64,000 nucleotides of DNA from Minisyncoccota bacterium (GTDB lineage Bacteria > Patescibacteriota > Minisyncoccia > Phycocordibacterales > UBA9973), in contig JAIPHX010000005.1 in NCBI GenBank assembly GCA_021734995.1, positions 4,099 through 68,098 on the forward strand, written 5' to 3'. Both the position numbers and the translations under genes were made by a program. Positions 4,879 through 52,354 of this stretch are shown piece by piece. The first letter of the stretch is position 1; each line of letters opens with the position of its first letter. The notes below the pieces were generated by a model. It ran no database searches, was not told the origin of the DNA, and was given only the letters and a program-made list of their open reading frames with translations.

Positions 4879-6507
4879 ATGAATGAAAATAACAACGAAC
4901 TAAGTGCAGCAGAAAAAATTCAATTAGCAAAAGAAAAGAAATTGAATAAAAAAACAGAAATTGAATCTCTTTATCAAGACGCTAAAAAAGAACTAGAAAA
5001 CACACTTAAAGAAATTAAGAGTGTAAAAGATTTACGAGAAAGTTTTAAACAAAAGAGGATTGATTTTACCAAACAACAAAGGGGAATAGTTGATGGTGTA
5101 AAAAAGGAAGATTTAGATATGTATAAAGATGAATTAACAGATAAATTTAGGGATACTTTTAAGCTTGAAATAGAACAATGGAAGGGGATGGGTGACGAAG
5201 TCGAAAATTTAAATAAAGAATTAAAAGAATTACAAACTTTAGCGAGTGTACAAGAAAAAAAATCTAAAGAATTATTTTACCAGACAGATGATGGTTTAAA
5301 AGTTCTAGAAAAAGAAAAAGATGAATTACTGGAGCAGGAAAAGATGAATTCATATATTGATGTTATAGATAAATTGTTTTCTCAAAATGGAGTAGATCAA
5401 CGTTATGGTAATTTTGGTCCATATAAAAAACATAACTTAGAAAATTTACTAGAAGATTTAATTCTTTGTGGTAACTTTTCTAAAGTTTTACCAGGATATT
5501 CATATGATAATTTTACTGGCCTAGATAAATCTATTTCTGAAGAAGAATATCAAAAGATATTTACAGAGTACATATTTACAAAAGTTTTGAAATCCGATTT
5601 CAAAAAACCATTTGAAGATAGGGGTTTAGAAAAAGGATTAAAAAATATTATTTCAGAACAAATTAAGTTTATGATTTATCTACATAAAAACAAAGGCAAA
5701 TTCACAGAGGTTCAAAACAAAACTTCACTTAATGATTTTATAGTAGAAAATGGTGAAAAAATTTCAACATTAAGAAATAAGATAGGAGATGTATTTGGAG
5801 AAGTTGTTAATGGATTCAGTAATATTTCCTCTGAAGATTATATAAAAGATTATATAAAAAATATTGATTATAGTTATTTAAAATTAAGTAAAAAAGAAAT
5901 TAGTAGTATTAATGATGAGATTTGGTCTGATATTAATCATTTATTACCTAAAAAAGTGGATGATATTACTTTTAATATTGATTCTGGTTACTATGCAGAT
6001 TCAAATTATTTTTCAGGTTTTTACAAAAAAGTAAGAGATATTCTTTTAAGTAAAAGAATGAACTTATTAAATACTGTTTTACCTCGTGTACAAAAACAAT
6101 TTAATGAGGAAGAAAATAAATTTATTAGCTTAAAGAAAAAGGACTTAGAAGAAACAATTAATTTATTAAGATTTAAAATTAATTATATAAACTATGTTGA
6201 AGATCAAATATTATCTTTGTTTAATAACTTTAATTCTAATAGTAGTCAAGGAATAGGAAAAGAAGTTGCTCAATATATAGGATATTTAAACAAAATTCAA
6301 AATTTTAAATTAAAACTAAATCAAAACTCTAATTATCCTACAAATTCTGTGAACTTAGAAACTCTAGATAGATATGTCCAACCAATAACCTTAGACGAAA
6401 AGGAGATTGTTATGTCTTCTGTTATTAAAGATTTTTATGAAAAAATAGAACGAATAATAAAACAATTGAATGTTGATTTGCAAGAAGATAAATCAAATAA
6501 TAACTAG
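4879..6507 (+). CDS. hypothetical K/E/N-rich coiled-coil protein
   Basis: Long ORF of low complexity with heptad-like K/E repeats and no catalytic motif. Confidence 0.5.
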   Translation: MNENNNELSAAEKIQLAKEKKLNKKTEIESLYQDAKKELENTLKEIKSVKDLRESFKQKRIDFTKQQRGIVDGVKKEDLDMYKDELTDKFRDTFKLEIEQWKGMGDEVENLNKELKELQTLASVQEKKSKELFYQTDDGLKVLEKEKDELLEQEKMNSYIDVIDKLFSQNGVDQRYGNFGPYKKHNLENLLEDLILCGNFSKVLPGYSYDNFTGLDKSISEEEYQKIFTEYIFTKVLKSDFKKPFEDRGLEKGLKNIISEQIKFMIYLHKNKGKFTEVQNKTSLNDFIVENGEKISTLRNKIGDVFGEVVNGFSNISSEDYIKDYIKNIDYSYLKLSKKEISSINDEIWSDINHLLPKKVDDITFNIDSGYYADSNYFSGFYKKVRDILLSKRMNLLNTVLPRVQKQFNEEENKFISLKKKDLEETINLLRFKINYINYVEDQILSLFNNFNSNSSQGIGKEVAQYIGYLNKIQNFKLKLNQNSNYPTNSVNLETLDRYVQPITLDEKEIVMSSVIKDFYEKIERIIKQLNVDLQEDKSNNN

Positions 6508-6541
6508 CATTTACCTATACATTTTGGTATAATAGGACTAT

Positions 6542-9500
6542 ATGGCAAAAGAAAATAGTGCAGACACAAAGAGTGGAAAAGGGCATCATTATGATGCTTC
6601 TGACATTTCGGTCCTTGAAGGGTTGGAACCTGTCCGTAAACGTCCTGGAATGTATATTGGGACTACTGGTCCTGAAGGTTTACACCATTTGATTTGGGAA
6701 ATATTTGACAACTCTCGTGATGAAGCGATGGGAGGTTTTTGTGATACCATTGAAGTAGTTATTCTTCCAGGTAATCGTATTAGAGTAACCGACAATGGTC
6801 GTGGTATTCCGATTGATGTTCACAAAAAAACAAAAGTATCTGCTTTAGAAACAGTGATGACTACTTTGCATGCCGGAGGGAAATTTGGAGGTGAAGGATA
6901 TAAAGTGTCTGGAGGGTTGCATGGAGTGGGTGCATCAGTCGTAAATGCTCTTTCTATATATTGTAGAGCAGAAGTCCATAAAGATGGAGGTATTTATGTA
7001 CAAGAATATTCAAAAGGGGTCAAAAAATCCGCAGTAAAAAAGATTGGTTCTACTAAACAAAATGGAACGATCATTACTTTTGAGCCAGATATAGAAATTT
7101 TTAAAGAAATAAAGTTTGATTGGAATGTGATAGTCAGTCATATTCGTCAGCAAGCATATCTTGTAAAAGGACTACGAGTATCTATTATAGACGCAAGAGA
7201 ATTTGACCCAACTCTTTTATTTGAATCAAAAAATTCAAAATTAGATCCAGATTCTGTATTCTATTTCAAAGAGCTTGGCTTAGAGCTTCCATCAGTTTCT
7301 TTTTATTTTGAAGGAGGACTTACATCTTTGATTAGATATTACAATAAGTTTCAAAAACCTGTTCAACAAAATATTTTTTATGTAGAAAAAGAACAAGACG
7401 GAGTGGGGGTGGAGATTGCCTTGCAATATGTAGATGACATTGTAGATCGCATTGTTCCTTTTGCCAACAATATCTACAACCCAGAAGGTGGTACACATGT
7501 TACAGGTTTTAAAACTGCTCTTACTAGAACTCTGAATACATATTGCAAAAAGAATGAAATGATCAAAGAATCTGAAGGAGGTTTTACAGGAGAAGATGTA
7601 TTAGAAGGTCTTACTGTTGTGATATCTGTAAAGCTTCGTGAAATACAATTTGAAGGTCAAACTAAAGCAAAGCTTGGTAGTGTAGAAGCTCAAGGTGCAG
7701 TAGCTACTGTCTTTGGTGAGGCTTTTTCGGGTTTTCTAGAGGAAAATCCAGATGAAGCTAAGTCAATCATAGGAAAAGCAGTACTTGCAATGAAAGCTCG
7801 TAAAGCGGCAAAAGCTGCAAAGGATTCTGTGCTACGTAAGGGAGCTCTTGAGGGGATGACTCTTCCAGGAAAGTTAGCAGATTGTCAAACAAAAGATGCG
7901 AGTGAATCTGAACTCTTTATTGTGGAAGGAGATTCTGCAGGAGGGTGTTTTTCAGGAGACACAAAAGTTGCTTTGGTTGACGGTAGAAATATATCTTTTA
8001 AAGAAATTATTGCTGAATATCAAAATAACAAAAAAAATTATTGTTACACAATACTTCATGATGGTAGTATTGGAATACAAGAAATAAAAAATCCAAGAAG
8101 AACAAAGACTAACGCAGAAGTTATAAAAATTATCTTGGATAATAATGAAGAAATAGTCTGCACTCCAGACCATTTGTTTATGTTGAGAGACGGTACTTAT
8201 AAACAAGCAAAAGATATTTTGATTACAGATTCTCTTATGCCCCTTAGAAAAAAGATTTCTGAAATTGGAGGGCGTATCACAATAAAGGGATATGAAATGG
8301 TCTATAATAACAATTCTAATAGATGGATCTTTACTCATATGTTGGCAGATGAATTTAATTTGCGTAAAGGTTTTGATACTATTGAAAATGGTGCATATAG
8401 GCATCACAAAGATTTTAATAAAACAAATAATAATCCGGACAATATAGTAAGACTCACAAAGGAAGAGCATATTTCTCTGCATTCTTTTTATTATGAAAAA
8501 AATTTAAAAAGACCAGATGTATTAGAAAAATTAAGTATTTTAAGAAAGACTCCGGAATATAGACAAAAAATAAGAGAAAAAATGCTCGCTATGAGAGAAG
8601 ATTTAAGTATTAGAGCTAAAGCACAATGGGAAAATGAAGAATATAAGAAATATATGGTAAATAAATTTTTAGATTTTTATGCTTCCAATAAAGATTATAG
8701 AGAAAAAAGTCAAAATATTTTACAAAAAGCACAGAAAGAATATTGGGCTAGTACTGAAAATAAAAAGAAGCAATCAAAAAAAGTGAAAGAGTTTTTTGCA
8801 ATGAATCCTTTAGCAAAAGTTAATTTGAGTGAAAAAGCTAAAAAACAATGGATGCAAGGTGATTTGTTGGATTGGAGAAGCAAAAAAACACAAGAACAAT
8901 GGACAGAAGAATTTAGGGAAAAGAGAAGAATTGCTTATAATAAAACTTATTACGAAAACACAATTAGAGTTCTAAAAAGAGTTTATGACCAAACCAAATC
9001 TATAGACATACAGTCTTTTGAAGATTTAAGAAAGATAGAAAATAATAAAAATGTACTATCGTTCAATACTTTTTTTAATAGGTTTTTCGATGAAGATTTT
9101 AATAGATTGAAAGATGCTGTTGAAAACTATAACCACAAAATAAAGAGTATTGTGCATCTTTCTGGGAAAATTGATGTGTATGATATTGAGGTTCCAGGTA
9201 CTCACAATTTTGCTCTTGCTTCTGGTGTTTTTGTTCACAATAGTGCAAAGCAAGGTAGAGATAGAAGGACTCAAGCGATTTTGCCTTTGCGCGGAAAAAT
9301 TTTGAATGTGGAGAGAGCTAGAATAGACAAAATGCTTGCATCCAAGGAAGTAAAAGCTCTCGTTATAGCATTAGGAACTTCTATTGGAGATACTTTTGAT
9401 ATAGAAAAGGCACGATATCACAAAATAATTATCGCTACTGATGCCGACGTGGACGGGTCTCACATTAGGACACTTTTGCTTACTTTGTTTTATAGATATT

Positions 9501-36486: not shown

Positions 36487-37731
36487 ATGAGCACGATTTC
36501 TGAAGTTATATTCTATGTTCTGACCTTCTTGGCAGTATATGTCCAGGTTTTTTTCTTTGTTACTTTTTTTGAAAACAATAAAAAAATTCAGAACAGAAAA
36601 GGTTCAACCAAGTTAAAAAAATATAAAGGAGTAACAATCATAGTTCCTGCTTTTAATGAAGAAGCTACTCTCTGTAAGACAGTAAGGTCTATTTTAAATT
36701 TAAATTATCAAAAAGATAAGATAAAAATTATTTTAGTAAATGATGGCTCTAAAGATAATACTTTAAAAATGATGAATCGTTTTGCAAAGTATCCAAATAT
36801 TAGAGTTTTCAACAAAGAGAATGGTGGAAAACATACTGCTTTAAATCTAGGATTGGAAAATTTAGAAACTGAATATGTGGGATGTTTGGACGCAGACTCC
36901 ATTGCTGACCCTGATTCTTTAAATCGTATTATGAATGTATTTGAGAATGATCCAACCATAATGGCAGTTACTCCATCAATCGTAGTAACAGAGCCTAAAA
37001 ACCTCTTACAGCACGCGCAGAGAGCTGAATATTTCATGATGGTTTTCATAAAGAAAATGTTTGGTTTTATGGGTGGAATTCATGTGACCCCTGGACCGCT
37101 TACTATTTTTAATAGAAAAGTTTTTGATAATCTTGGCCATTACAAAGAAGCTCACAAAACAGAAGATATGGAGATTGCATTTAGAATGCAAAAAAACAAC
37201 TACCCTATAGAGCAATGCAACGATGCTTATGTTTATACCAATACTCCTCCAACCGTAAAAAAGCTTTTTAAGCAAAGATTACGATGGACTTATGGGGGTA
37301 TAAATATAATGTTGGATTACAAAGATATGTTGTTTAAAAAGAAATATGGGAATTTTTCTTACTTTACTATCCCTACTAGCGTTATCTCTGTCTTCTCTAT
37401 TGTCTTTTTTGTGTTAAAAATTATATATGATTTTGGTAAGTTTGTAGCAGATCAGGTTTTACAAATTAAAACAGTTGGTTTTAGTATGAGCTACACTTTG
37501 CCCAAAATTGACCTATTTTTTGTGGATACAGGGACATTTCTGTTTCTTTCTATATTGATATATATATTCGTGATTGCTTCTATTATGATTGGGTACAAGA
37601 TGGTTACAGGAAGATATAGAATAACAAAAGAATTTTTTTATTATTTTATATTTTTTGTTACTATTTCCCCATTTTGGCTTAGTAAAGCACTTTATAACAC
37701 ATTAACATCTAGAGCTCCTGATTGGAGATAA
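36487..37731 (+). CDS. processive family-2 glycosyltransferase (PgaC/IcaA/NodC/cellulose-synthase-like polysaccharide synthase), integral membrane
   Basis: GT-A motifs (IIVPAFNEE, LVNDGSKDNT, DXD in CLDADS). The hallmark QRLRW motif and several C-terminal TM helices are present. Its size (414 aa) is like PgaC/IcaA. Confidence 0.75.
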   Translation: MSTISEVIFYVLTFLAVYVQVFFFVTFFENNKKIQNRKGSTKLKKYKGVTIIVPAFNEEATLCKTVRSILNLNYQKDKIKIILVNDGSKDNTLKMMNRFAKYPNIRVFNKENGGKHTALNLGLENLETEYVGCLDADSIADPDSLNRIMNVFENDPTIMAVTPSIVVTEPKNLLQHAQRAEYFMMVFIKKMFGFMGGIHVTPGPLTIFNRKVFDNLGHYKEAHKTEDMEIAFRMQKNNYPIEQCNDAYVYTNTPPTVKKLFKQRLRWTYGGINIMLDYKDMLFKKKYGNFSYFTIPTSVISVFSIVFFVLKIIYDFGKFVADQVLQIKTVGFSMSYTLPKIDLFFVDTGTFLFLSILIYIFVIASIMIGYKMVTGRYRITKEFFYYFIFFVTISPFWLSKALYNTLTSRAPDWR

Positions 37732-37735
37732 ATAT

Positions 37736-38416
37736 ATGGAAAATAATAAAATTGATTGGAAAAAATATGTGATTGTTTTTTTTATAACATCCTTGCTTTT
37801 TATTTTAGCGTGGTACCTGAGTAATTATTTTAGTGAAAAAAAGTTATCTCAAATAAAAACTATTCAAAATGATATTGCTCTAGACATTTTGTCTTCAGAG
37901 ACTCAGTTTTCTCTTTTATCTGAACTTTCTTGTAAAAATATCACAGCAGAATCTTCTCTTTCTAAAGAGTTAAATGAAATGGGGCAAAAGCTTGAATGGG
38001 GAGAAGATAATATTGATGATAGTAGTGAGCTACTGTATCTTCGCAGATATTATTCTTTGTTACAAATAAAGGACTACCTTCTTTTAAAAAATATTTCTGA
38101 GCGTTGCGGGAATAAATATGCTTTCATTTTGTATTTTTATACAGATGTAGATAATTGTACAGAATGTAAAAGGCAGGGGATAGTATTGTCCTCTCTTCGA
38201 GAGAAATTTCCTAGTTTAAGAGTATATTCTTTTGATTACAGCACCAATCTTTCAGCTATAAAATCTATGCTTCAAATATACAAAGTAGAAGATACCAAGC
38301 TACCCGCATTGGTGCTTGACGATGAGCTTTTGACTGGCTTTCGGTCTATAGAGGAGCTTGAGACTAAGATAGAGAAGTCCTTTGCGTTGAAGGACGAGAG
38401 TAAGAGTAAGGAGTAG
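37736..38416 (+). CDS. membrane-anchored thioredoxin-like protein (CTEC active site)
   Basis: N-terminal TM segment. AFILYFYTDVDNCTECKRQG resembles the thioredoxin beta1-CxxC segment, and LPALVLDDELLTGF resembles the cis-Pro region. Confidence 0.5.
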   Translation: MENNKIDWKKYVIVFFITSLLFILAWYLSNYFSEKKLSQIKTIQNDIALDILSSETQFSLLSELSCKNITAESSLSKELNEMGQKLEWGEDNIDDSSELLYLRRYYSLLQIKDYLLLKNISERCGNKYAFILYFYTDVDNCTECKRQGIVLSSLREKFPSLRVYSFDYSTNLSAIKSMLQIYKVEDTKLPALVLDDELLTGFRSIEELETKIEKSFALKDESKSKE

Positions 38417-38625
38417 ACCTAATTTGTTTGTATAAAATTGAAGAGTGCTTTGATTACTTTTTAAAGTGTTTGAATTTCGGTATACTATTGACTCACAGGT
38501 ACTAATTTGGTACCATTTTAATATGGTTAAAAAGTTATCAACAAAGGCATACACATATCATTGGTTCCACAAATTGGAGCTAGTGGTTTTTGCGTAAGTA
38601 TCTAACTTTAGATAAACACTCAAAA

Positions 38626-38660
38626 AAACAGGCTCCGAGTAATTCGGAGCCTGTTTTCAT
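38626..38660 (+). terminator. strong intrinsic terminator hairpin that ends 3 nt before the start codon of the HAD-like gene
   Basis: aaaaaaACAGGCTCCGAgtaattTCGGAGCCTGTtttcatttt. Confidence 0.55.
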
Positions 38661-38663
38661 TTT

Positions 38664-39095
38664 ATGAAAATAATTTTTGATTACAACCGAACAATTTTTA
38701 ACCCAGATACAGATAATTTGTATTTTGGTGTCTTGAATTTACTTAAAAAGTTATCCAAGAAATATGAATTATTTTTGGTTAGCAGGAATGAGCCAAATAG
38801 GAAATATATGTTAGAAAAATTAAATATAAAAAATTATTTTCAAGAGATATTTTTTTTAGAAAAAAAATCAAAAAAAAACTTTCAACTAATTGCAAAAGGC
38901 ACAAAAAATGTGGTTGTTGTTGGAGACAGTATTTCCGATGAAATACAAATAGGGAATCAGCTTGGTTTTATAACTGTTCGTTTAAAAAAAGGAAAATTTG
39001 CTACACAAATTCCAAAAAATAAAAAAGAGTTTGCAAAATTTGAAATCATGGATATTAGAGAATTAGAAAATATAATTTTAAATCATGAAAAATAA
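38664..39095 (+). CDS. HAD-superfamily hydrolase-like protein (degenerate motif I)
   Basis: IIFDYNRTIF resembles motif I with N replacing the second Asp. VVVGDSISDE matches motif IV. Confidence 0.5.
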   Translation: MKIIFDYNRTIFNPDTDNLYFGVLNLLKKLSKKYELFLVSRNEPNRKYMLEKLNIKNYFQEIFFLEKKSKKNFQLIAKGTKNVVVVGDSISDEIQIGNQLGFITVRLKKGKFATQIPKNKKEFAKFEIMDIRELENIILNHEK

Positions 39096-39251
39096 TATAC
39101 AAAAAAATAAATATTGGCACTGGTATCACTCAAATAAAATAATTTTGGGTTGTTGTATGTGCTTCTCGATTTAATCAAGGAACTCATTCAGTAGCCCAAA
39201 TGGTTTGAGGCTACAAGAAATGGTTCTTTTACAATTAAAAAGGAGTTACAA

Positions 39252-40514
39252 ATGTACAACAAACTGACTAATGTCATTTCTGAATCAGGTATTTGGAGTG
39301 GCACAAGAAAGGAATCACACGCATTCCTGCTTTCACCAAGCGTGTATCAAATTACTGAGGTACAACGTCAAGAACTTCAAACTCTTGGGGTTGCAATCTA
39401 TGACTGCCTGTTGGGTTTGTCCCATATTGCAGTAATCGCATATGACTCAAGTTTGAATTATGGTGGGGCATGGTTACTTGCTCGCCGAGTATTCTCAACA
39501 GGGGTACCGAAAGCCTACCAAGAGCTTCAAGGGATAAATATTAGACATATTCCCAAATTGCTTAAAGTAGATTTAATGGTTGACCAAGATGGTAATTTTA
39601 AGATTGCCGAAATTGACGGTCATAATAAGCATGGGCTTGGATACTCTACTCTAGGTTTAAGATTTCGTGAAGCGTTGTATCCTGAGGCGAAAGCACTTCC
39701 GGGGACTGTCCAAGTTCTTTCTGGGGAGATGAAACGCCTAGGTCATAACGAGATTAAACTTCTCTATGCTGATCAAGAAAGATTCTATGTTCCAGAATTT
39801 GAAGTCGCAAGACAGGAATTTACAAAACATGGAATAAATTGCTCTATTATTTCAGAAATGGAAATCGATGATACATTCCTTGGAAGTGGGATGTTCCTCG
39901 ATTTGCCATTTTTGTATCACAAAAAGGAGTTATATGACACAATCGTTTCTTCTTATAAAAATAGACAGGTGGATTTTATTATTCCACCCAAACCATTTTT
40001 GGGAGCAAAGGGAGTTTTGGCGTTAATTCGAAATGATGGGAGGAATGAGCATCTAGAAAGCTTACTCTCTTCTTTCATTAAGAAGTCTTCGCTTGAACTG
40101 CTGAGAAAATACATCCCGGAAACTTTTCTTGTTGGGAAACAAGCAGAAACAATTGATTCAATAAAAGAAAGATTGTCTCACAAAAGGTTTGTTCTTAAAG
40201 AGTCAATTTCGAGTGGGATGAAAGGTACTGTCTTTTCAGACGAAGAGTGCTTTGATTCTGTACTCACTCGTGCTTGTACAACAAACATGAATTGGATTCT
40301 ACAAGAGGAGGTGGTTAATCAACCGCAGACTTTCTCTTGGTTTGAAAATGAGGGTATAAATAAACCTAAAATTCAAACAACAGATGATTGGTTCATGAGG
40401 GTAACTACTCAGTATATAAATCGTCAACTTGGAGATGTAATAGTAACTGCGTGTCGTGGGAAAGCAGTACATGGTGGGAAAAAATGTCTTCAACTTGGAA
40501 CGATTGTTCTTTGA
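39252..40514 (+). CDS. circularly permuted ATP-grasp-like protein (putative amidoligase); GC-rich, probably horizontally acquired
   Basis: It is visibly more GC-rich than its neighbours, with a canonical AAAGGAG RBS. ATP-grasp-like elements appear in permuted order: a C-terminal-type Mg motif near the N-terminus (VDLMVDQDGNFKIAEIDG), then a P-loop-like KPFLGAKGV, then a hinge-like WILQEEV. It lies adjacent to tRNA-Thr. Confidence 0.45.
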   Translation: MYNKLTNVISESGIWSGTRKESHAFLLSPSVYQITEVQRQELQTLGVAIYDCLLGLSHIAVIAYDSSLNYGGAWLLARRVFSTGVPKAYQELQGINIRHIPKLLKVDLMVDQDGNFKIAEIDGHNKHGLGYSTLGLRFREALYPEAKALPGTVQVLSGEMKRLGHNEIKLLYADQERFYVPEFEVARQEFTKHGINCSIISEMEIDDTFLGSGMFLDLPFLYHKKELYDTIVSSYKNRQVDFIIPPKPFLGAKGVLALIRNDGRNEHLESLLSSFIKKSSLELLRKYIPETFLVGKQAETIDSIKERLSHKRFVLKESISSGMKGTVFSDEECFDSVLTRACTTNMNWILQEEVVNQPQTFSWFENEGINKPKIQTTDDWFMRVTTQYINRQLGDVIVTACRGKAVHGGKKCLQLGTIVL

Positions 40515-40596
40515 TTTATACAAGGAGCTAACATAAACGTTAGCTCCTTTTTTTTATAAAGTATTTTTATATTTCCGACAAAAATCGGATTAAGGG

Positions 40597-40669
40597 AGCC
40601 GGCACGAGGATTCGAACCCCGGACCTTCGCTTTACAAAAGCGTTGCTCTACCAACTGAGCTATGCCGGC
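40597..40669 (-). tRNA. trnT: tRNA-Thr (anticodon TGT)
   Basis: The reverse complement GCCGGCATAGCTCAGTTGGTAGAGCAACGCTTTTGTAAAGCGAAGGTCCGGGGTTCGAATCCTCGTGCCGGCT folds as a cloverleaf: 7-bp acceptor stem, anticodon loop TTTGTAA, T-loop TTCGAAT. CCA is not encoded. Confidence 0.85.
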
Positions 40670-40748
40670 ATATTTATTTCTATACAAAACTTCTAATATT
40701 CTAGCACAAAATTTATTTTTTGCGAGCCCATACTATTCCACCAAATTC

Positions 40749-41156
40749 TTACTCTTCTTTTGTTTTTCTACCTGCTCCTCGGATCTTTTTCTGATAATCT
40801 GAAATCATTTTTAAATATTTATTTACTTCTTGAGATTCATTTGTGTCTTTAGAAATATTTCCTTGAGATTTTAACAATTTCTCTTCTATCTTTTTAGCAA
40901 GTTCTAAACTTTTCTTTTTTAACAATTTAGAAAAATGAATATAGAAATGTAAAATTGTGAAAAGAGAAAGGTAGATGTATTTGCGGATATTTTGCTTGAT
41001 AGTTTTTTTAAAATTCTGAATATCATCAGTAAAAGGATTTTCAAAAATTTCCTCTTCTTTTAGGGAAGAATGTTTTCTTAGAAGGAATAGTTTTTGTCCC
41101 AACATTCCCATAATCCCCAATAAAGATATTATAAGTGTTGTTAAGGCGATATACAT
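40749..41156 (-). CDS. hypothetical membrane protein with a K-rich coiled-coil tail
   Basis: N-terminal hydrophobic helix. It sits downstream of tsf, where pyrH or frr would usually be. Confidence 0.45.
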   Translation of the reverse strand: MYIALTTLIISLLGIMGMLGQKLFLLRKHSSLKEEEIFENPFTDDIQNFKKTIKQNIRKYIYLSLFTILHFYIHFSKLLKKKSLELAKKIEEKLLKSQGNISKDTNESQEVNKYLKMISDYQKKIRGAGRKTKEE

Positions 41157-41158
41157 TG

Positions 41159-41929
41159 TTAGATTGTGGAACGTCTGATCTCTTTGATAGAAGCTTTATT
41201 TTTTTCTAAAAGAGATTTGATAGTTTCATCAGCGTTTTTTATAAAAGATTGGTCAAGTAATGTCTTTTCTTTAAAGTAAGTAGACATTTTACCTTGAAGC
41301 ATTTTTTGTTTGATATCTTCTGGTTTGTCTATATCTGCAACTTCTTTTTCAAAGATTTCTTTCATTTGTTTTTTGACCTCTTCGGTAATATCAGCTTCTG
41401 AAATGTATTCTGGACGCATTGCAGCTATGTGCATTGCTATATCTTTAGCTAGATCAGTATTTCCTCCATTTAAAGATACTACTACAGCGGATTTGTTGTT
41501 GTGAACATAGTTCCCAATAGTTTCGCCTGTTGTTTCAGAAATTTCGCCTAATTCTATCTTTTCGCCAGTTTTTTGGATAACAGGATCTATCATTGCTTTT
41601 GAAGATTCTTTCATTTTCTCAACACCTTCAGAAAGAGCTAAGTCTGCGAGCTTAGAAATTAAATTTGTGAAATCTTCATTTTTTGCTACGAAATCAGTTT
41701 CGCAATGTAAAGTAACTAATATTGTTTTATTCCCAGATGTTTTTACTACTACTGCTCCATCTTTTGCATCTCTATCAGCTTTTTTTGATGCTATATCAGA
41801 ACTATTCTTTTTAAGAATAGCAATAGCTTTTTCCATATCACCATCTGCCTCTTCTAATGCTTTTTTACATTGCATCACAGAGATGCCTGTCTTGTCTCTA
41901 AGTTCTTTTACTTGTTCTCCTGTAATCAT
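41159..41929 (-). CDS. tsf: elongation factor Ts
   Basis: UBA-like N-terminus ITGEQVKELRDKTGISVMQCKKALEEADGDMEKAIAILKK. It follows rpsB. Confidence 0.85.
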   Translation of the reverse strand: MITGEQVKELRDKTGISVMQCKKALEEADGDMEKAIAILKKNSSDIASKKADRDAKDGAVVVKTSGNKTILVTLHCETDFVAKNEDFTNLISKLADLALSEGVEKMKESSKAMIDPVIQKTGEKIELGEISETTGETIGNYVHNNKSAVVVSLNGGNTDLAKDIAMHIAAMRPEYISEADITEEVKKQMKEIFEKEVADIDKPEDIKQKMLQGKMSTYFKEKTLLDQSFIKNADETIKSLLEKNKASIKEIRRSTI

Positions 41930-41986
41930 AATTTTAAATATAAATTATCGATAAAAATCGATAATTAAGGTTATTTATTAAATTTG

Positions 41987-42691
41987 TTATTTGGCTGAAG
42001 GAGAGGAGACACCTCTTTTGTATGCTTCAGACAATTCTTTGGTGAAAAATTTGATTGAAGGCACAGTAGCGTCATTTGCCAATACTGGATATGTTACATC
42101 CTTTATGTTTGAATCTGAATTTAGTAGAGCTACTATAGGTAAGCTAAAGCTATTTGCTTCAGTGGTAGCAATGTGTTCTTTTTTTGAATCAATAATGAAA
42201 AGTATATCTGGAATCTTTTTTACACCTACTAGACCGCTGTAATATCTAGAAAGTCTTTCCATTTTCTTTGCCATAACTGTCCTTTCTTTTTTTGTATATT
42301 TTTCTAAGTTACCTTCAGTAATGTCCTTGCGATAGTCTTCTAACTCAGTAATCCTTTTTTTGATTTCAGGGAAATTAGAGATTGTACCACCGATCCATCT
42401 TTCTATAACATAAGGCATTTCTAGAGATTCTGCTGTATTTTTTATCATTTCTCTAGCTTCTGGCTTGGTACCTACAAACAAGATGGTTTTTCCTTCTTGT
42501 CCTGCTTTCTCCATAAAATCTATTGCTTTTTGTAATAGAGTAGCTGTCTTCTCAAGATTGATAATATCTCCACTTTGTTTTGTAGTATATATATATGTAG
42601 ATGTGGAAGGGTGTCTACGAGACTTAGAATACCCATAATGAGCTCCAACTGCGAACATTTCTTCTATTGTTTTTGTTATATCTTTTTGCAT
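41987..42691 (-). CDS. rpsB: 30S ribosomal protein S2
   Basis: EMFAVGAHYGYSKSRRHPSTSTYIYTTKQSGDIINLEKT and the conserved rpsB-tsf order. Confidence 0.85.
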   Translation of the reverse strand: MQKDITKTIEEMFAVGAHYGYSKSRRHPSTSTYIYTTKQSGDIINLEKTATLLQKAIDFMEKAGQEGKTILFVGTKPEAREMIKNTAESLEMPYVIERWIGGTISNFPEIKKRITELEDYRKDITEGNLEKYTKKERTVMAKKMERLSRYYSGLVGVKKIPDILFIIDSKKEHIATTEANSFSLPIVALLNSDSNIKDVTYPVLANDATVPSIKFFTKELSEAYKRGVSSPSAK

Positions 42692-42856
42692 ATTGTTTTA
42701 ATTTGATACCGAATTATTCTAGCAGAAAAAGCTTATATACGCAATAGTAGGGGTTTTGATTCTATTTTTGCTTTTGTGGTTTTTAAAAATTGGGAGATAT
42801 TGGTATAAATTGATACATCTTTGACCAAAGACCTTTTTTCAGTTAATATGAATGAT

Positions 42857-44104
42857 ATGAGACAATCTAAACTTTTTACTAAAACAAGGAAAGAAGCTCC
42901 TGCTGACGAAATTGCAAAAAACGCTGAGCTTCTTACTCGTGCTGGTTTTATCAACAAGCAAATGGCGGGAGTGTATGCTTTGTTACCACTTGGTTTGAGA
43001 GTTATGAAAAAAATAGAAAACATTATAAGGGAAGAAATGAATACTATTGGAAGTCAGGAAATTTCTATGACTACATTACAAGATCCAGAAGTGTGGAAAA
43101 AAACAGACAGGTGGAGTGATGAAGCAGTAGATGTGTGGTTTAAAACGAAATTAAAAAATGACACAGAGCTTGGACTTGGTTGTACTCACGAAGAGCCGAT
43201 TACAAAAATGCTTACAGAACATTTGAGTTCTTACAGAGATTTACCTTTTTCTGTTTATCAGATACAGACAAAATTTCGCAATGAGCCAAGAGCAAAAAGT
43301 GGTATATTGCGAGGTAGAGAATTTTTAATGAAAGATATGTATTCTTTTTGTTCAGATGAAGATAGTCATAATGAATTTTATGAAAAATCAAAAATTGCTT
43401 ATAAAAATGTCTTTCAAAGATTGGGAATAGGGCACCTTACTTATATTACTTTTGCTTCAGGTGGAATGTTTTCAAAATATTCTCATGAATTTCAGACTAT
43501 TTGTCCTGTGGGAGAAGATACTATTTATCTAGATGAAGAAAAAGGAATAGCGGTAAACAAAGAAGTTTTTGATGATGAGGTTTTAAGTTCTCTTGGTTTA
43601 GATAAATCAAAAATGGTAGAGCATAAAGCTATAGAAGTAGGAAATATCTTTACTTTGGGTAAAAAGTATTCTGAGCCATTGGGCTTAACATTTAAAAATG
43701 AAAGTAGCGAAGATTTGTCTGTATTTATGGGGTGTTATGGTATTGGTATTGGTCGTCTTATGGGAACCGTAGTAGAAGCTCTTTCAGATGATAAAGGTAT
43801 CATATGGCCAGAATCCATTGCTCCATTTAAGTTTCATTTACTCGCTTTAGGAGAATCAGAAAATGTAAAAAAAGAAGCCAATTCTCTGTATGATTTGTTA
43901 CTTAGCAAAGGAGTTGAAGTTTTTTTTGATGACAGAGAAGCGATGTCTGCTGGGGAAAAATTTGCAGATTCAGATTTGATCGGTATTCCTTATAGGATAG
44001 TCGTGTCAGAGAGAAGCTTGAAAGAAGGAGGTTTTGAACTTAAAAAACGAACAGAAGAAAAAGGAAAAATTGTATCACAAGAAGAGTTATTAAAAATTAT
44101 TTAA
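42857..44104 (+). CDS. proS: prolyl-tRNA synthetase, short bacterial type without the INS editing domain (about 415 aa)
   Basis: MRQSKLFTKTRKEAPADEIAKNAELLTRAGFINKQMAGVYALLPLGLRVMKKIENIIREEMN matches the ProRS N-terminus. Class II motifs and a C-terminal anticodon-binding domain are present. Confidence 0.8.
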   Translation: MRQSKLFTKTRKEAPADEIAKNAELLTRAGFINKQMAGVYALLPLGLRVMKKIENIIREEMNTIGSQEISMTTLQDPEVWKKTDRWSDEAVDVWFKTKLKNDTELGLGCTHEEPITKMLTEHLSSYRDLPFSVYQIQTKFRNEPRAKSGILRGREFLMKDMYSFCSDEDSHNEFYEKSKIAYKNVFQRLGIGHLTYITFASGGMFSKYSHEFQTICPVGEDTIYLDEEKGIAVNKEVFDDEVLSSLGLDKSKMVEHKAIEVGNIFTLGKKYSEPLGLTFKNESSEDLSVFMGCYGIGIGRLMGTVVEALSDDKGIIWPESIAPFKFHLLALGESENVKKEANSLYDLLLSKGVEVFFDDREAMSAGEKFADSDLIGIPYRIVVSERSLKEGGFELKKRTEEKGKIVSQEELLKII

Positions 44105-52049: not shown

Positions 52050-52348
52050 GACTTATATCAGATGATTGCTCTTGTTTTTTAACAAGAGAGGAAAGTCCGA
52101 ACACGCAGTCGGCCTAGCCGATTAAACGTAGTGGGTAATACCCATCTTCCAAGGAGTTGGAAAGAGGTGCGAACAGAGACGAGTCTTTAGCTTCGGCTAA
52201 AGAGTGAAACGGCAAAATCCTTACGCGCGTGCAAGATCGTGTCCGTTTTTACGGAAGAATCGCTTGACTCTATTGGTAACAATAGAGCTAGATAAATAAT
52301 CATCGACTCTTTTAAAGAGTTACAGAATTCGGCTTATAGGTATAAGAC
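52050..52348 (+). ncRNA. rnpB: RNase P RNA, bacterial type A, compact (about 300 nt)
   Basis: P3 hairpin CTCTTGTTttttAACAAGAG followed by the P4 5' strand GAGGAAAGTCCGAAC. The 3' side carries ACAGAATTCGGCTTAT. P1 is the CTTATA/TATAAG pairing at the ends. Confidence 0.65.
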
Positions 52349-52354
52349 TCATAT

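Follow-up and report, generated by a model that had tools for sequence, protein, structure and literature searches.

A conserved module of a capless phosphatase-like protein, a structured RNA leader and a putative ATP-grasp ligase in Patescibacteria

A stretch of 64,000 nucleotides (nt) from the genome of a Minisyncoccota bacterium (Patescibacteriota; NCBI GenBank assembly GCA_021734995.1, contig JAIPHX010000005.1, positions 4,099 to 68,098 of the forward strand; hereafter the window) was analysed with respect to one open reading frame (ORF) at 39252–40514 (+), which was confirmed in the ORF list of the window and encodes a protein of 420 amino acids (aa). Our data suggest that this ORF is part of a conserved module, in which a capless phosphatase-like protein of the haloacid dehalogenase (HAD) fold and a structured leader of ∼100 nt precede an ATP-grasp enzyme, probably a carboxylate-amine ligase under the control of an RNA switch (hereafter the ligase); we put the probability of this reading at roughly 0.6. 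A first-pass annotation had instead described the ORF as a single foreign-looking gene, perhaps for a circularly permuted ATP-grasp amidoligase, inserted next to a tRNA gene. The permuted fold was upheld by structure prediction, Foldseek searches and a collinear profile-profile alignment with YgiC/GspS, but the picture of a single inserted gene was not, since the ligase belongs to a conserved HAD-leader-ligase module.

The ATP-grasp enzyme and its family

The predicted enzyme and the segments of it that could be aligned with known proteins are as follows:

39252–40514 (+), circularly permuted (glutathione synthetase (GS)/GspS-type) ATP-grasp enzyme, as predicted from the AlphaFold2 model, Foldseek, hhalign and conservation
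39558–39617 (+), codons 103–122, LKVDLMVDQDGNFKIAEID, two strands with K105, D107, E120 and D122, aligned to YgiC
39990–40016 (+), codons 247–255, KPFLGAKGV, with the invariant K253 (hhalign)
40191–40226 (+), codons 314–325, VLKESISSGMKG, with the invariant K316 and a Ser/Gly-rich flexible loop, aligned to V-V-K302-P-x-F-S-R-E-G of YgiC
40293–40313 (+), codons 348–354, WILQEEV, the hinge strand with the invariant Q351, aligned to M-I-V-Q336-Q-F of YgiC

The AlphaFold2 model of the ligase, built on 30 homologues, had a pLDDT (predicted local distance difference test) of 90.3 and a pTM (predicted TM-score) of 0.90. Foldseek comparison of this model with the PDB produced 46 matches at E ≤ 1e-3, almost all of which were permuted ATP-grasp ligases with a probability of 1.00. 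Human, yeast, plant and nematode glutathione and homoglutathione synthetases made up the best group (E ∼1e-13, TM-score 0.6–0.67), and further matches included E. coli GspS, YgiC, YjfC, Mfla_0391 and trypanothione synthetase. The exception to the group, 3k1t, a putative gamma-glutamylcysteine synthetase, was the weakest of the 46 (E = 2e-6, TM-score 0.34). The classical ATP-grasp enzymes RimK, ArgX and Ddl reached E ∼4e-3 at best.

Single-sequence comparisons using hhalign were weak (probabilities of 39% for YgiC and 4% for GspS) and became usable once a YgiC/GspS profile had been built, with which the profile of the ligase family aligned over 309 collinear columns at E = 2.4e-5. Five residues (D107, E120, K253, K316 and Q351) were invariant in 56 of 56 family sequences, in an alignment extending down to 22% identity, and were paired by hhalign with D102, E115, K267, K302 and Q336 of YgiC, all invariant in the YgiC/GspS alignment. 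Nearly invariant were the acidic residue 122, K/R105, R383, T399 and H407-G408; the T399...V406-H407-G408 loop lies within the ten-residue stretch that the model predicts with the lowest confidence. In classical ATP-grasp enzymes, the R-x-D ... E-x-N strands that bind Mg and phosphate are C-terminal. In the ligase, D107 and E120-x-D122 precede K253, K316 and Q351, which is the permuted order and the same as that of YgiC.

The three peptide motifs named in the first-pass annotation occur in the order that it gave (residues 106–123, 247–255 and 348–354), and its choice of WILQEEV as the hinge agrees with the hhalign result. An E-x-N-type metal-binding strand had also been proposed near the N-terminus; its position stands, with D107 and E120 invariant and residues 103–122 aligned with R100-L-D102 ... 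E115-N-N117 of YgiC (all invariant in the YgiC/GspS alignment), but residue 122 is Asp or Glu, not Asn. KPFLGAKGV had been taken for the glycine-rich loop. It aligns instead with the xNK lysine motif of YgiC/GspS, K253 being the counterpart of N266-K267 in YgiC, and the Ser/Gly loop is SISSGMKG at residues 318–325. In the Pfam search, for which the first-pass annotation had named CP_ATPgrasp_1/2 and GSP_synth, the window protein passed no model: no family was matched at E ≤ 1, including GSP_synth (PF03738), CP_ATPgrasp_1/2 (PF04174, PF14403) and GSH_synth_ATP. Sub-threshold matches to CP_ATPgrasp_2 (PF14403) were found in 8 of the 56 family members, the best scoring 23 bits against a cutoff of 32. 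The sole profile matches in the PDB, LacI-type and ABC-binding proteins at E ≥ 0.01, were judged to reflect chance similarity in a Rossmann-like region. On the strength of the predicted structure and the profile alignment, the ORF product is a member of the circularly permuted (glutathione synthetase/GspS-type) ATP-grasp superfamily.

Compared with the eukaryotic glutathione and homoglutathione synthetases (2HGS, 1M0W, 3KAL), its best structural matches (E ∼1e-13, TM-score ≤0.67), the ligase is only ∼12% identical, is ∼50–60 residues shorter and has no match to Pfam GSH_synth_ATP; furthermore, no gamma-glutamylcysteine ligase gene was found in the ligase neighbourhoods. CP_ATPgrasp_1/2 systems (PF04174, PF14403) are also permuted ATP-grasp enzymes, and the structure 3N6X was matched at E = 4e-9, but all scores of the ligase family fell below the gathering threshold. 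The operons of these systems are defined by alpha-E, transglutaminase and peptidase partners, which are absent here. YgiC/YjfC and the synthetase domain of GspS (GSP_synth, PF03738) have the permuted topology in common with the ligase (Foldseek E ∼1e-10, TM-score 0.55–0.60), and their ATP-dependent carboxylate-amine ligation is the chemistry that would be expected of it. They differ in sequence (11–15% identity, no PF03738 match) and at the third metal position, which is Asn in these enzymes and Asp or Glu in the ligase; the latter also lacks the amidase domain of GspS, and its context is distinct, with a phosphatase partner, a structured leader and labelled members that are all Patescibacteria. 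A report on a fungal enzyme cites YgiC/YjfC as peptide-spermidine ligases (PMC12568646). That enzyme, the E-64 enzyme Cp1B, is a GS-like ATP-grasp ligase that was a “hypothetical protein” identifiable by fold alone (PMC12568646), and the ligase resembles it in this respect.

A search of 5.8 billion protein clusters identified 286 homologues of the ligase at 90% identity clustering, most of them ∼420 aa long and 59–83% identical from end to end, with no Pfam domain assigned. When 1.84 billion representatives (50% identity) were searched exhaustively with a profile, only 253 relatives emerged, and a scan of one genome per species yielded 41 ligase loci. The identical protein on record is a “hypothetical protein” from a metagenome-assembled genome of Candidatus Pacebacteria. 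Organism names on the homologues, where usable, were all Patescibacteria (Paceibacteria, Parcubacteria, Nomurabacteria), as were all informative titles of the genome loci, including Moranbacteria, Magasanikbacteria, Kerfeldbacteria and Doudnabacteria; some third-party assembly titles (Gammaproteobacteria, Bdellovibrionales, Pseudomonadales) look mislabelled, and a few say merely “bacterium”. No specific description of the family was found in the searchable literature. The family is small and unannotated, with only Patescibacteria among its labelled members.

The phosphatase partner and the structured leader

Upstream of the ligase gene, the window contains the following features:

38664–39095 (+), partner gene, encoding a capless HAD-fold protein of 143 aa (Pfam HAD_2, AlphaFold2, Foldseek, synteny)
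39114–39143 (+), promoter-like site TTGGCA-N18-AATAAT (promoter scan, 10 of 12 matches)
39143–39244 (+), structured 5′ leader of type A (covariance model, covariation, minimum free energy (MFE) fold)
39144–39155 (+), leader element S1
39157–39187 (+), leader S2 hairpin
39189–39200 (+), leader segment S3a
39191–39214 (+), leader S3 hairpin
39223–39234 (+), leader S4 box, GUUCUUUUACAA
39240–39245 (+), Shine-Dalgarno sequence AAGGAG, 6 nt 5′ of the ligase ATG

Of 43 ligase loci with upstream DNA, 42 had the HAD gene as the immediate upstream neighbour of the ligase, in the same orientation, and pairwise identities of the two proteins were correlated (rho = 0.67–0.68). Besides this gene, and a His_Phos_1 gene in a distant branch, no conserved neighbour was detected in the 43 loci. 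The HAD family comprised 160 clusters, nearly all of ∼143 aa. The window protein matched Pfam HAD_2 at E = 2.7e-5, just above the cutoff; its AlphaFold2 model had a pLDDT of 94, and Foldseek matched solely the core domain of capped HADs (YfnB, NANP, L-2-haloacid dehalogenase). With the subfamily I phosphatases (YfnB, NANP/HDHD4) and L-2-haloacid dehalogenases it has the Rossmannoid core in common (TM-score to the query 0.65–0.79), and, as in the YfnB/NANP group, the nucleophile Asp, the Ser of motif II, the Lys of motif III and the acidic motif IV are kept (S40, K68 and G87-D88-x4-E93, of which S40, K68, G87-D88 and E93 are invariant in the family). The cap domain, however, is wholly absent (143 aa versus ∼200–250 aa in capped HADs). 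All aligned full-length members read D-x-N-R-T at motif I, where D6, N8, R9 and T10 are invariant; in the window protein this motif is D6-Y-N8-R-T10, and Asn takes the place of the Asp+2 general acid, unlike in YfnB/NANP-type phosphatases.

Four loci of a distant ligase branch (L081–L084) have no HAD gene, and the gene order there is ligase, His_Phos_1, HisRS and EamA transporter. The His_Phos_1 proteins are 175–178 aa in length, SixA-sized, with an intact RHG motif, and are not homologous to the HAD protein; this exchange of one fold for another is good evidence for a dephosphorylation step in the function of the module. HisRS was also found directly downstream of the ligase in L001 (6220–7620, with a 44-nt overlap with the ligase) and L025 (∼5364–6640), a linkage that we regard as a lead rather than a result. 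Two long family members, P0229 and P0231 (L081 350–2209 and L082 1155–2960), carry an N-terminal extension of 170–190 aa that has no Pfam match and is unlike HAD; a HAD-ligase fusion was rejected on this basis. At one locus, L022 (3362–5081), a divergent flavoprotein gene stands in the HAD position and a convergent tRNA-Arg lies 74 nt past the ligase, which has Arg where Gly325 is otherwise conserved.

The spacer between the HAD and ligase genes was constant in length (∼150–165 nt in the closer genomes, ∼100 nt in others) and its sequence was conserved as well. In 22 type-A leaders, segment S3a pairs either with S1, forming a long imperfect hairpin that encloses S2, or with S3b, forming the local S3 hairpin, and these two pairings are mutually exclusive. 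With leader models built on 9–27 phylogenetically related sequences, S1:S3a together with S2 had 91.6% of cells paired, versus ≤53% with a slid partner, and 12 pairs changed on both sides (0/500 shuffles); the alternative of S2 and S3 had 87.8% of cells paired and 14 pairs changed on both sides (0/500 shuffles). The main S3 helix alone was ∼86% paired, with changes on both sides in 5 of its 8 pairs, and slid controls across the leader helices reached ≤58%. Type-B leaders had the same architecture in a different sequence (91.3% paired, 10 pairs changed on both sides), and type-C leaders, from the distant subfamily, had a terminator, CCAGCCAACCGGCTGG followed by T7, beside the start codon and a complementary GGTTGG upstream. 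The three sequence-divergent leader types A, B and C have one architecture in common. In several type-A species (L050, L019, L013, L027) a U-run follows S3.

The MFE fold of the window leader (MFE z-score −2.4) paired the conserved GUGCUUCUC of S2 (S2a) with the Shine-Dalgarno sequence. Such pairing would explain why a strong site was retained by the ligase gene alone: in line with the first-pass annotation, which had noted that the neighbouring genes lack one, AAGGAG was the sole 6-mer among the 41 long ORFs of the window, and a GGAG/GAGG/AGGA core was present upstream of 6 of the 41, i.e. the genome hardly relies on Shine-Dalgarno sites. When the window sequence was left out of the covariance model, the window leader was still recovered at 92.8 bits (E = 3e-22), as the only match within the 64 kb; type-B leaders were matched weakly by this model. 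A pattern scan of metagenomes produced 31 matches, of which the 17 with the full motif were all located between HAD and ligase homologues, although the pattern was narrow and divergent copies before other genes would have been missed. Comparison of 39096–39251 with 4227 Rfam families, at a cutoff as loose as E ≤ 10, gave nothing besides a chance-level match to DUF2815 (E = 8.3), the leaders of eight related loci had no Rfam match, and nothing specific on this leader or on riboswitches in Patescibacteria was found in the searchable literature. The leader is previously undescribed and has so far been found solely before the ligase family.

Two short elements of the leader stand out. Type-A and type-C leaders have a conserved TTGGCA box at their 5′ edge, which may act as promoter, operator or part of the RNA; a sigma-54 promoter was considered and rejected because the −12 element does not fit. 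The S4 box GTTCnTTnACAAC, ∼15 nt 5′ of the Shine-Dalgarno sequence, is conserved in types A and B, and its pairing partner AAGGAAC is present in type A only. In some species S4 reads GCACATT, which complements the opposite strand of that helix. A leader peptide was rejected, as the sole small ORF of the spacer, a 5-codon ORF (MCFSI) in S2, is lost in L011, L003 and others. A T-box or His attenuator, prompted by the HisRS linkage, was likewise set aside, there being no Rfam T-box match, no run of His codons and too short a leader. As in riboswitches and attenuators with competing helices, one strand of the leader (S3a) can choose between an upstream and a downstream partner. The competing folds lead either to a terminator, as in type C and part of type A, or to sequestration of the Shine-Dalgarno sequence. 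Unlike known riboswitches, the leader has neither an Rfam match nor a known ligand, and has so far been seen before one gene family only.

Composition, neighbourhood and origin of the window copy

The module of the window is bounded by the following features:

38625–38657 (+), hairpin of 15 uninterrupted base pairs with a T-rich tract after it (terminator scan; inverted repeat complementary at 14 of 14 positions)
40522–40557 (+), intrinsic terminator of the ligase gene, an 11-bp stem (40522–40549) followed by T8 (terminator scan; sequence)
40595–40669 (−), tRNA-Thr(UGU), convergent, 80 nt past the ligase stop codon (ARAGORN, Rfam)

The terminator hairpin that the first-pass annotation had placed against the start of the HAD gene was recovered; it ends 6 nt before the start codon (38664) and probably terminates transcription of the upstream GT2 glycosyltransferase and thioredoxin-like membrane protein genes. 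The convergent tRNA-Thr gene ∼80 nt from the end of the ligase ORF was also confirmed and is outside the HAD-leader-ligase module. In relatives the downstream neighbour varies (e.g. HisRS, pterin-4a dehydratase, TsaD, other tRNAs).

At 38.6%, the GC content of the ligase gene was the maximum of all 1263-nt segments in the 64 kb (top 0.08%). GC content at third codon positions (GC3) was 31.2% versus a mean of 22.5% (z = 2.8), placing the gene first for both measures among 39 long ORFs, and its synonymous codon usage was the most atypical of the 39 genes (z = −3.6). The gene is therefore the compositional outlier that the first-pass annotation expected windowed GC and codon usage to reveal; its GC excess is indeed the highest in the window, although the value is 38.6% and not the 40–45% originally given. 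Raised GC3 was also observed in the GT2 glycosyltransferase and thioredoxin-like membrane protein genes (36487–38416 (+); 0.27 and 0.30), the latter ranking second to the ligase in how atypical its codons are. At the other extreme, the outlier of low GC content in the window is a 542-aa ORF at 4879–6507 (+), with a GC content of 24.2% and a GC3 of 14.6%.

The HAD and ligase genes deviate in opposite directions, with 23.5% and ∼38.6% GC in a window of 32.6%, and in relatives the gap widens to as much as 15–21 points. Opposite deviations were also seen in L061, L056, L075 and others. In 28 of 35 other genomes the GC3 of the ligase exceeded that of flanking genes (mean +7 points, up to +30), versus only 8 of 33 genomes for HAD. 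Across ten further loci of closer relatives, ligase GC ranged from 35–49% (44–49% in eight) against backgrounds of 35–58%; HAD was mostly AT-richer than the background, and ligase GC fell below the background in GC-rich genomes. Expression-linked codon bias was rejected as the cause of the GC3 excess, since highly expressed genes of the window (EF-Ts, S2, RpoB/C) have ordinary GC3. The higher GC content of the ligase is a recurrent property of the family rather than the mark of an insertion in this genome.

Related gene order was found in L016 (700–5420), where rpsB, tsf, tRNA-Thr(UGU), tRNA-Tyr, HAD and ligase follow one another, the tRNA genes sharing a strand with HAD and ligase. The same neighbours recur in the window at 38664–42691, where the HAD-ligase module has the opposite orientation with respect to them. 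Identity between the two copies was 79% for the ligase, 66% for HAD and 38% for S2. The arrangement fits an old neighbourhood followed by inversion at least as well as it fits two independent insertions. Among a group of genomes with shared gene order, ligase identity was 55–64%, less than that of most of the neighbouring TrpRS, DnaB and AspRS genes (mostly 71–87%); in L001 and L028 ligase and HAD identities were discordant, a sign of exchange within the phylum. In ∼11 of 39 loci, tRNA genes of various kinds are found no more than ∼1 kb from the module, and genes for aminoacyl-tRNA synthetases (TrpRS, AspRS, HisRS, MetRS, GlyRS; ProRS in the window at 42821–44104) within 4 kb in about one third of loci, which may be enrichment or merely reflect the gene content of small genomes. 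Elsewhere in the window, an RNase P RNA of class A was identified at 52050–52352 (+) (118.7 bits), a shortened form with 303 nt of a 367-position model.

These observations bear on the proposal that the ligase is a horizontally acquired single gene, integrated at a tRNA-Thr hotspot of a reduced genome. The highest GC and GC3 and the most atypical synonymous codons of the window, its sole strong Shine-Dalgarno sequence, the convergent tRNA 80 nt away, the tRNA genes near other copies (the convergent layout recurring in L022) and flanking genes that vary between genomes would all be accommodated by acquisition, as would the 79% identity of the ligase to the L016 copy against 38% for S2 and the discordant identities in L001 and L028. 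However, no direct repeats derived from the 3′ end of the tRNA-Thr gene were found in 38400–41200, no integrase or mobility gene was found within 3 kb (the ORFs there being GT2, the thioredoxin-like membrane protein, HAD, a 135-aa membrane protein, EF-Ts and S2), and PHROGs and PADLOC searches gave no matches. Furthermore, the ligase is never alone, its HAD partner and leader being kept and the HAD gene of the window being AT-rich; a GC3 excess was likewise seen in 28 of 35 other genomes, with ligase GC under the background where genomes are GC-rich; and the adjacency of rpsB, tsf and tRNA-Thr is shared with L016. An insertion of this kind is therefore improbable. The usable labels of the homologues (286 clusters and 41 loci) are without exception Patescibacteria, and a foreign origin from outside the phylum is very unlikely.

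Alternative explanations, proposed mechanism and significance

Several observations weigh against the reading of a ligase and phosphatase module under RNA-switch control. That the enzyme is a ligase and not a kinase is deduced solely from its relatives. No entry of Pfam, NCBIfam or the PDB, the last searched with the single sequence and with two profiles, passed the threshold, the profile-profile probability is merely 75%, and the third metal position (residue 122) is Asp or Glu throughout the family where GS and GspS have Asn. The aligned full-length HAD proteins lack the D-x-D-x-T/V motif with its Asp+2 general acid, and the partner may therefore not be a conventional phosphatase; in addition, L022 is the sole locus with leader and ligase but no upstream HAD. 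Control through the leader could be protein-based or purely kinetic, and an RNA switch does not account for the S4 box. Lastly, the codon usage of the window gene (z = −3.6) and the 79% identity to L016, as against 38% for S2, make transfer within the phylum possible, although we see only a slim chance that this copy arose in such a way.

With respect to the enzyme itself, one alternative is a phosphotransfer or kinase-type ATP-grasp, which would form an acyl-phosphate or phospho-histidine on a small molecule or protein that the partner phosphatase resets. ATP-grasp modules of succinyl-CoA synthetase and pyruvate phosphate dikinase (PPDK) are known to phosphorylate histidine. The retention of a phosphatase partner despite a change of fold (HAD or SixA-sized His_Phos_1) would suit such an enzyme, as would the Asn at Asp+2, which fits substrates with good leaving groups, the capless form, typical of HADs for large substrates, and the nearly invariant H407 in the least confident and probably mobile loop of the model. 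The close structural relatives, however, are all carboxylate-amine ligases, and no gene for a target protein is conserved near the module, so that we consider a kinase unlikely. An amidoligase that adds amino acids to a protein or ribosomal peptide, as proposed for CP_ATPgrasp_1/2 and, in the form of a peptide-tag enzyme, by the first-pass annotation, would share the permuted fold, and is in keeping with the sub-threshold CP_ATPgrasp_2 scores in 8 of 56 members, the Mfla_0391 structure among the Foldseek matches, a capless HAD that could act on proteins and the aminoacyl-tRNA synthetase and tRNA genes that are common as neighbours. Yet neither alpha-E, transglutaminase and peptidase genes nor a precursor-peptide gene is conserved in the neighbourhood, the sole small ORF of the spacer is not conserved, and the best matches are small-molecule ligases; peptide or protein tagging is quite improbable.

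The leader, in turn, may sense no ligand, the spacer being a promoter or operator with a constitutive hairpin that stabilises the mRNA, or an RNA bound by the enzyme itself for autoregulation. This is a serious possibility, though on balance we think it unlikely. The TTGGCA box is conserved with promoter-like spacing, the S4 box is conserved without a pairing partner common to types A and B, and the leader has no known ligand. Against this, both of the mutually exclusive helices show compensatory changes, for which an operator would have no use, one architecture is maintained across three sequence-divergent leader types, and alternatives with a terminator or a sequestered Shine-Dalgarno sequence exist.

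If the module is a ligase and phosphatase pair controlled by an RNA switch, the ligase would bind Mg-ATP and phosphorylate a carboxylate to an acyl-phosphate, which an amine would then attack to form an amide, in the manner of the glutathione, glutathionylspermidine and peptide-spermidine synthetases; this scheme is suggested by the chemistry of all close structural relatives. The presence of a phosphatase partner implies that the substrate or product of the ligase is phosphorylated, or that a high-energy phospho-intermediate occurs, from which the partner would take the phosphate off. An Asn at Asp+2 and a missing cap would suit substrates with good leaving groups or a large partner. The leader would set the expression of the ligase, most probably at the level of translation and, in some lineages, by transcription termination as well: the long hairpin of S1:S3a and S2, which would form early, would leave the Shine-Dalgarno sequence free, whereas the alternative fold (S3 hairpin, S2b:S4 and S2a paired with the Shine-Dalgarno sequence) would hide it or, in some species, provide an intrinsic terminator. 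The trigger may be a ligand, a protein or simple kinetics. A more specific version, tentative and rather more likely wrong than right, is that the leader represents a new class of riboswitch that senses the substrate or product of a pathway so far confined to Patescibacteria, in which the GS-like ligase and its dedicated phosphatase make a small amide; given the recurrent linkage with HisRS and EamA, such an amide may be related to histidine.

The genomes of Patescibacteria are tiny, encode few biosynthetic enzymes and are rich in proteins without an annotated function, and to our knowledge almost no regulatory RNAs have been described in this phylum. A “hypothetical” protein without a sequence match in Pfam, NCBIfam or the PDB can now be placed in a defined enzyme class, with a phosphatase partner and a regulatory RNA. 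Dedicated RNA control in a genome that is sparing with Shine-Dalgarno sites suggests that the level of the enzyme's product is kept under close control. As a candidate for an orphan riboswitch or attenuator, the leader could also serve as a native expression switch in the genetic tools under development for Patescibacteria; with a pair of small, soluble proteins and an RNA of 100 nt, the module is a tractable system. Should the riboswitch and the amide pathway prove to be real, they would be relevant to the episymbiotic lifestyle of these ultrasmall bacteria.

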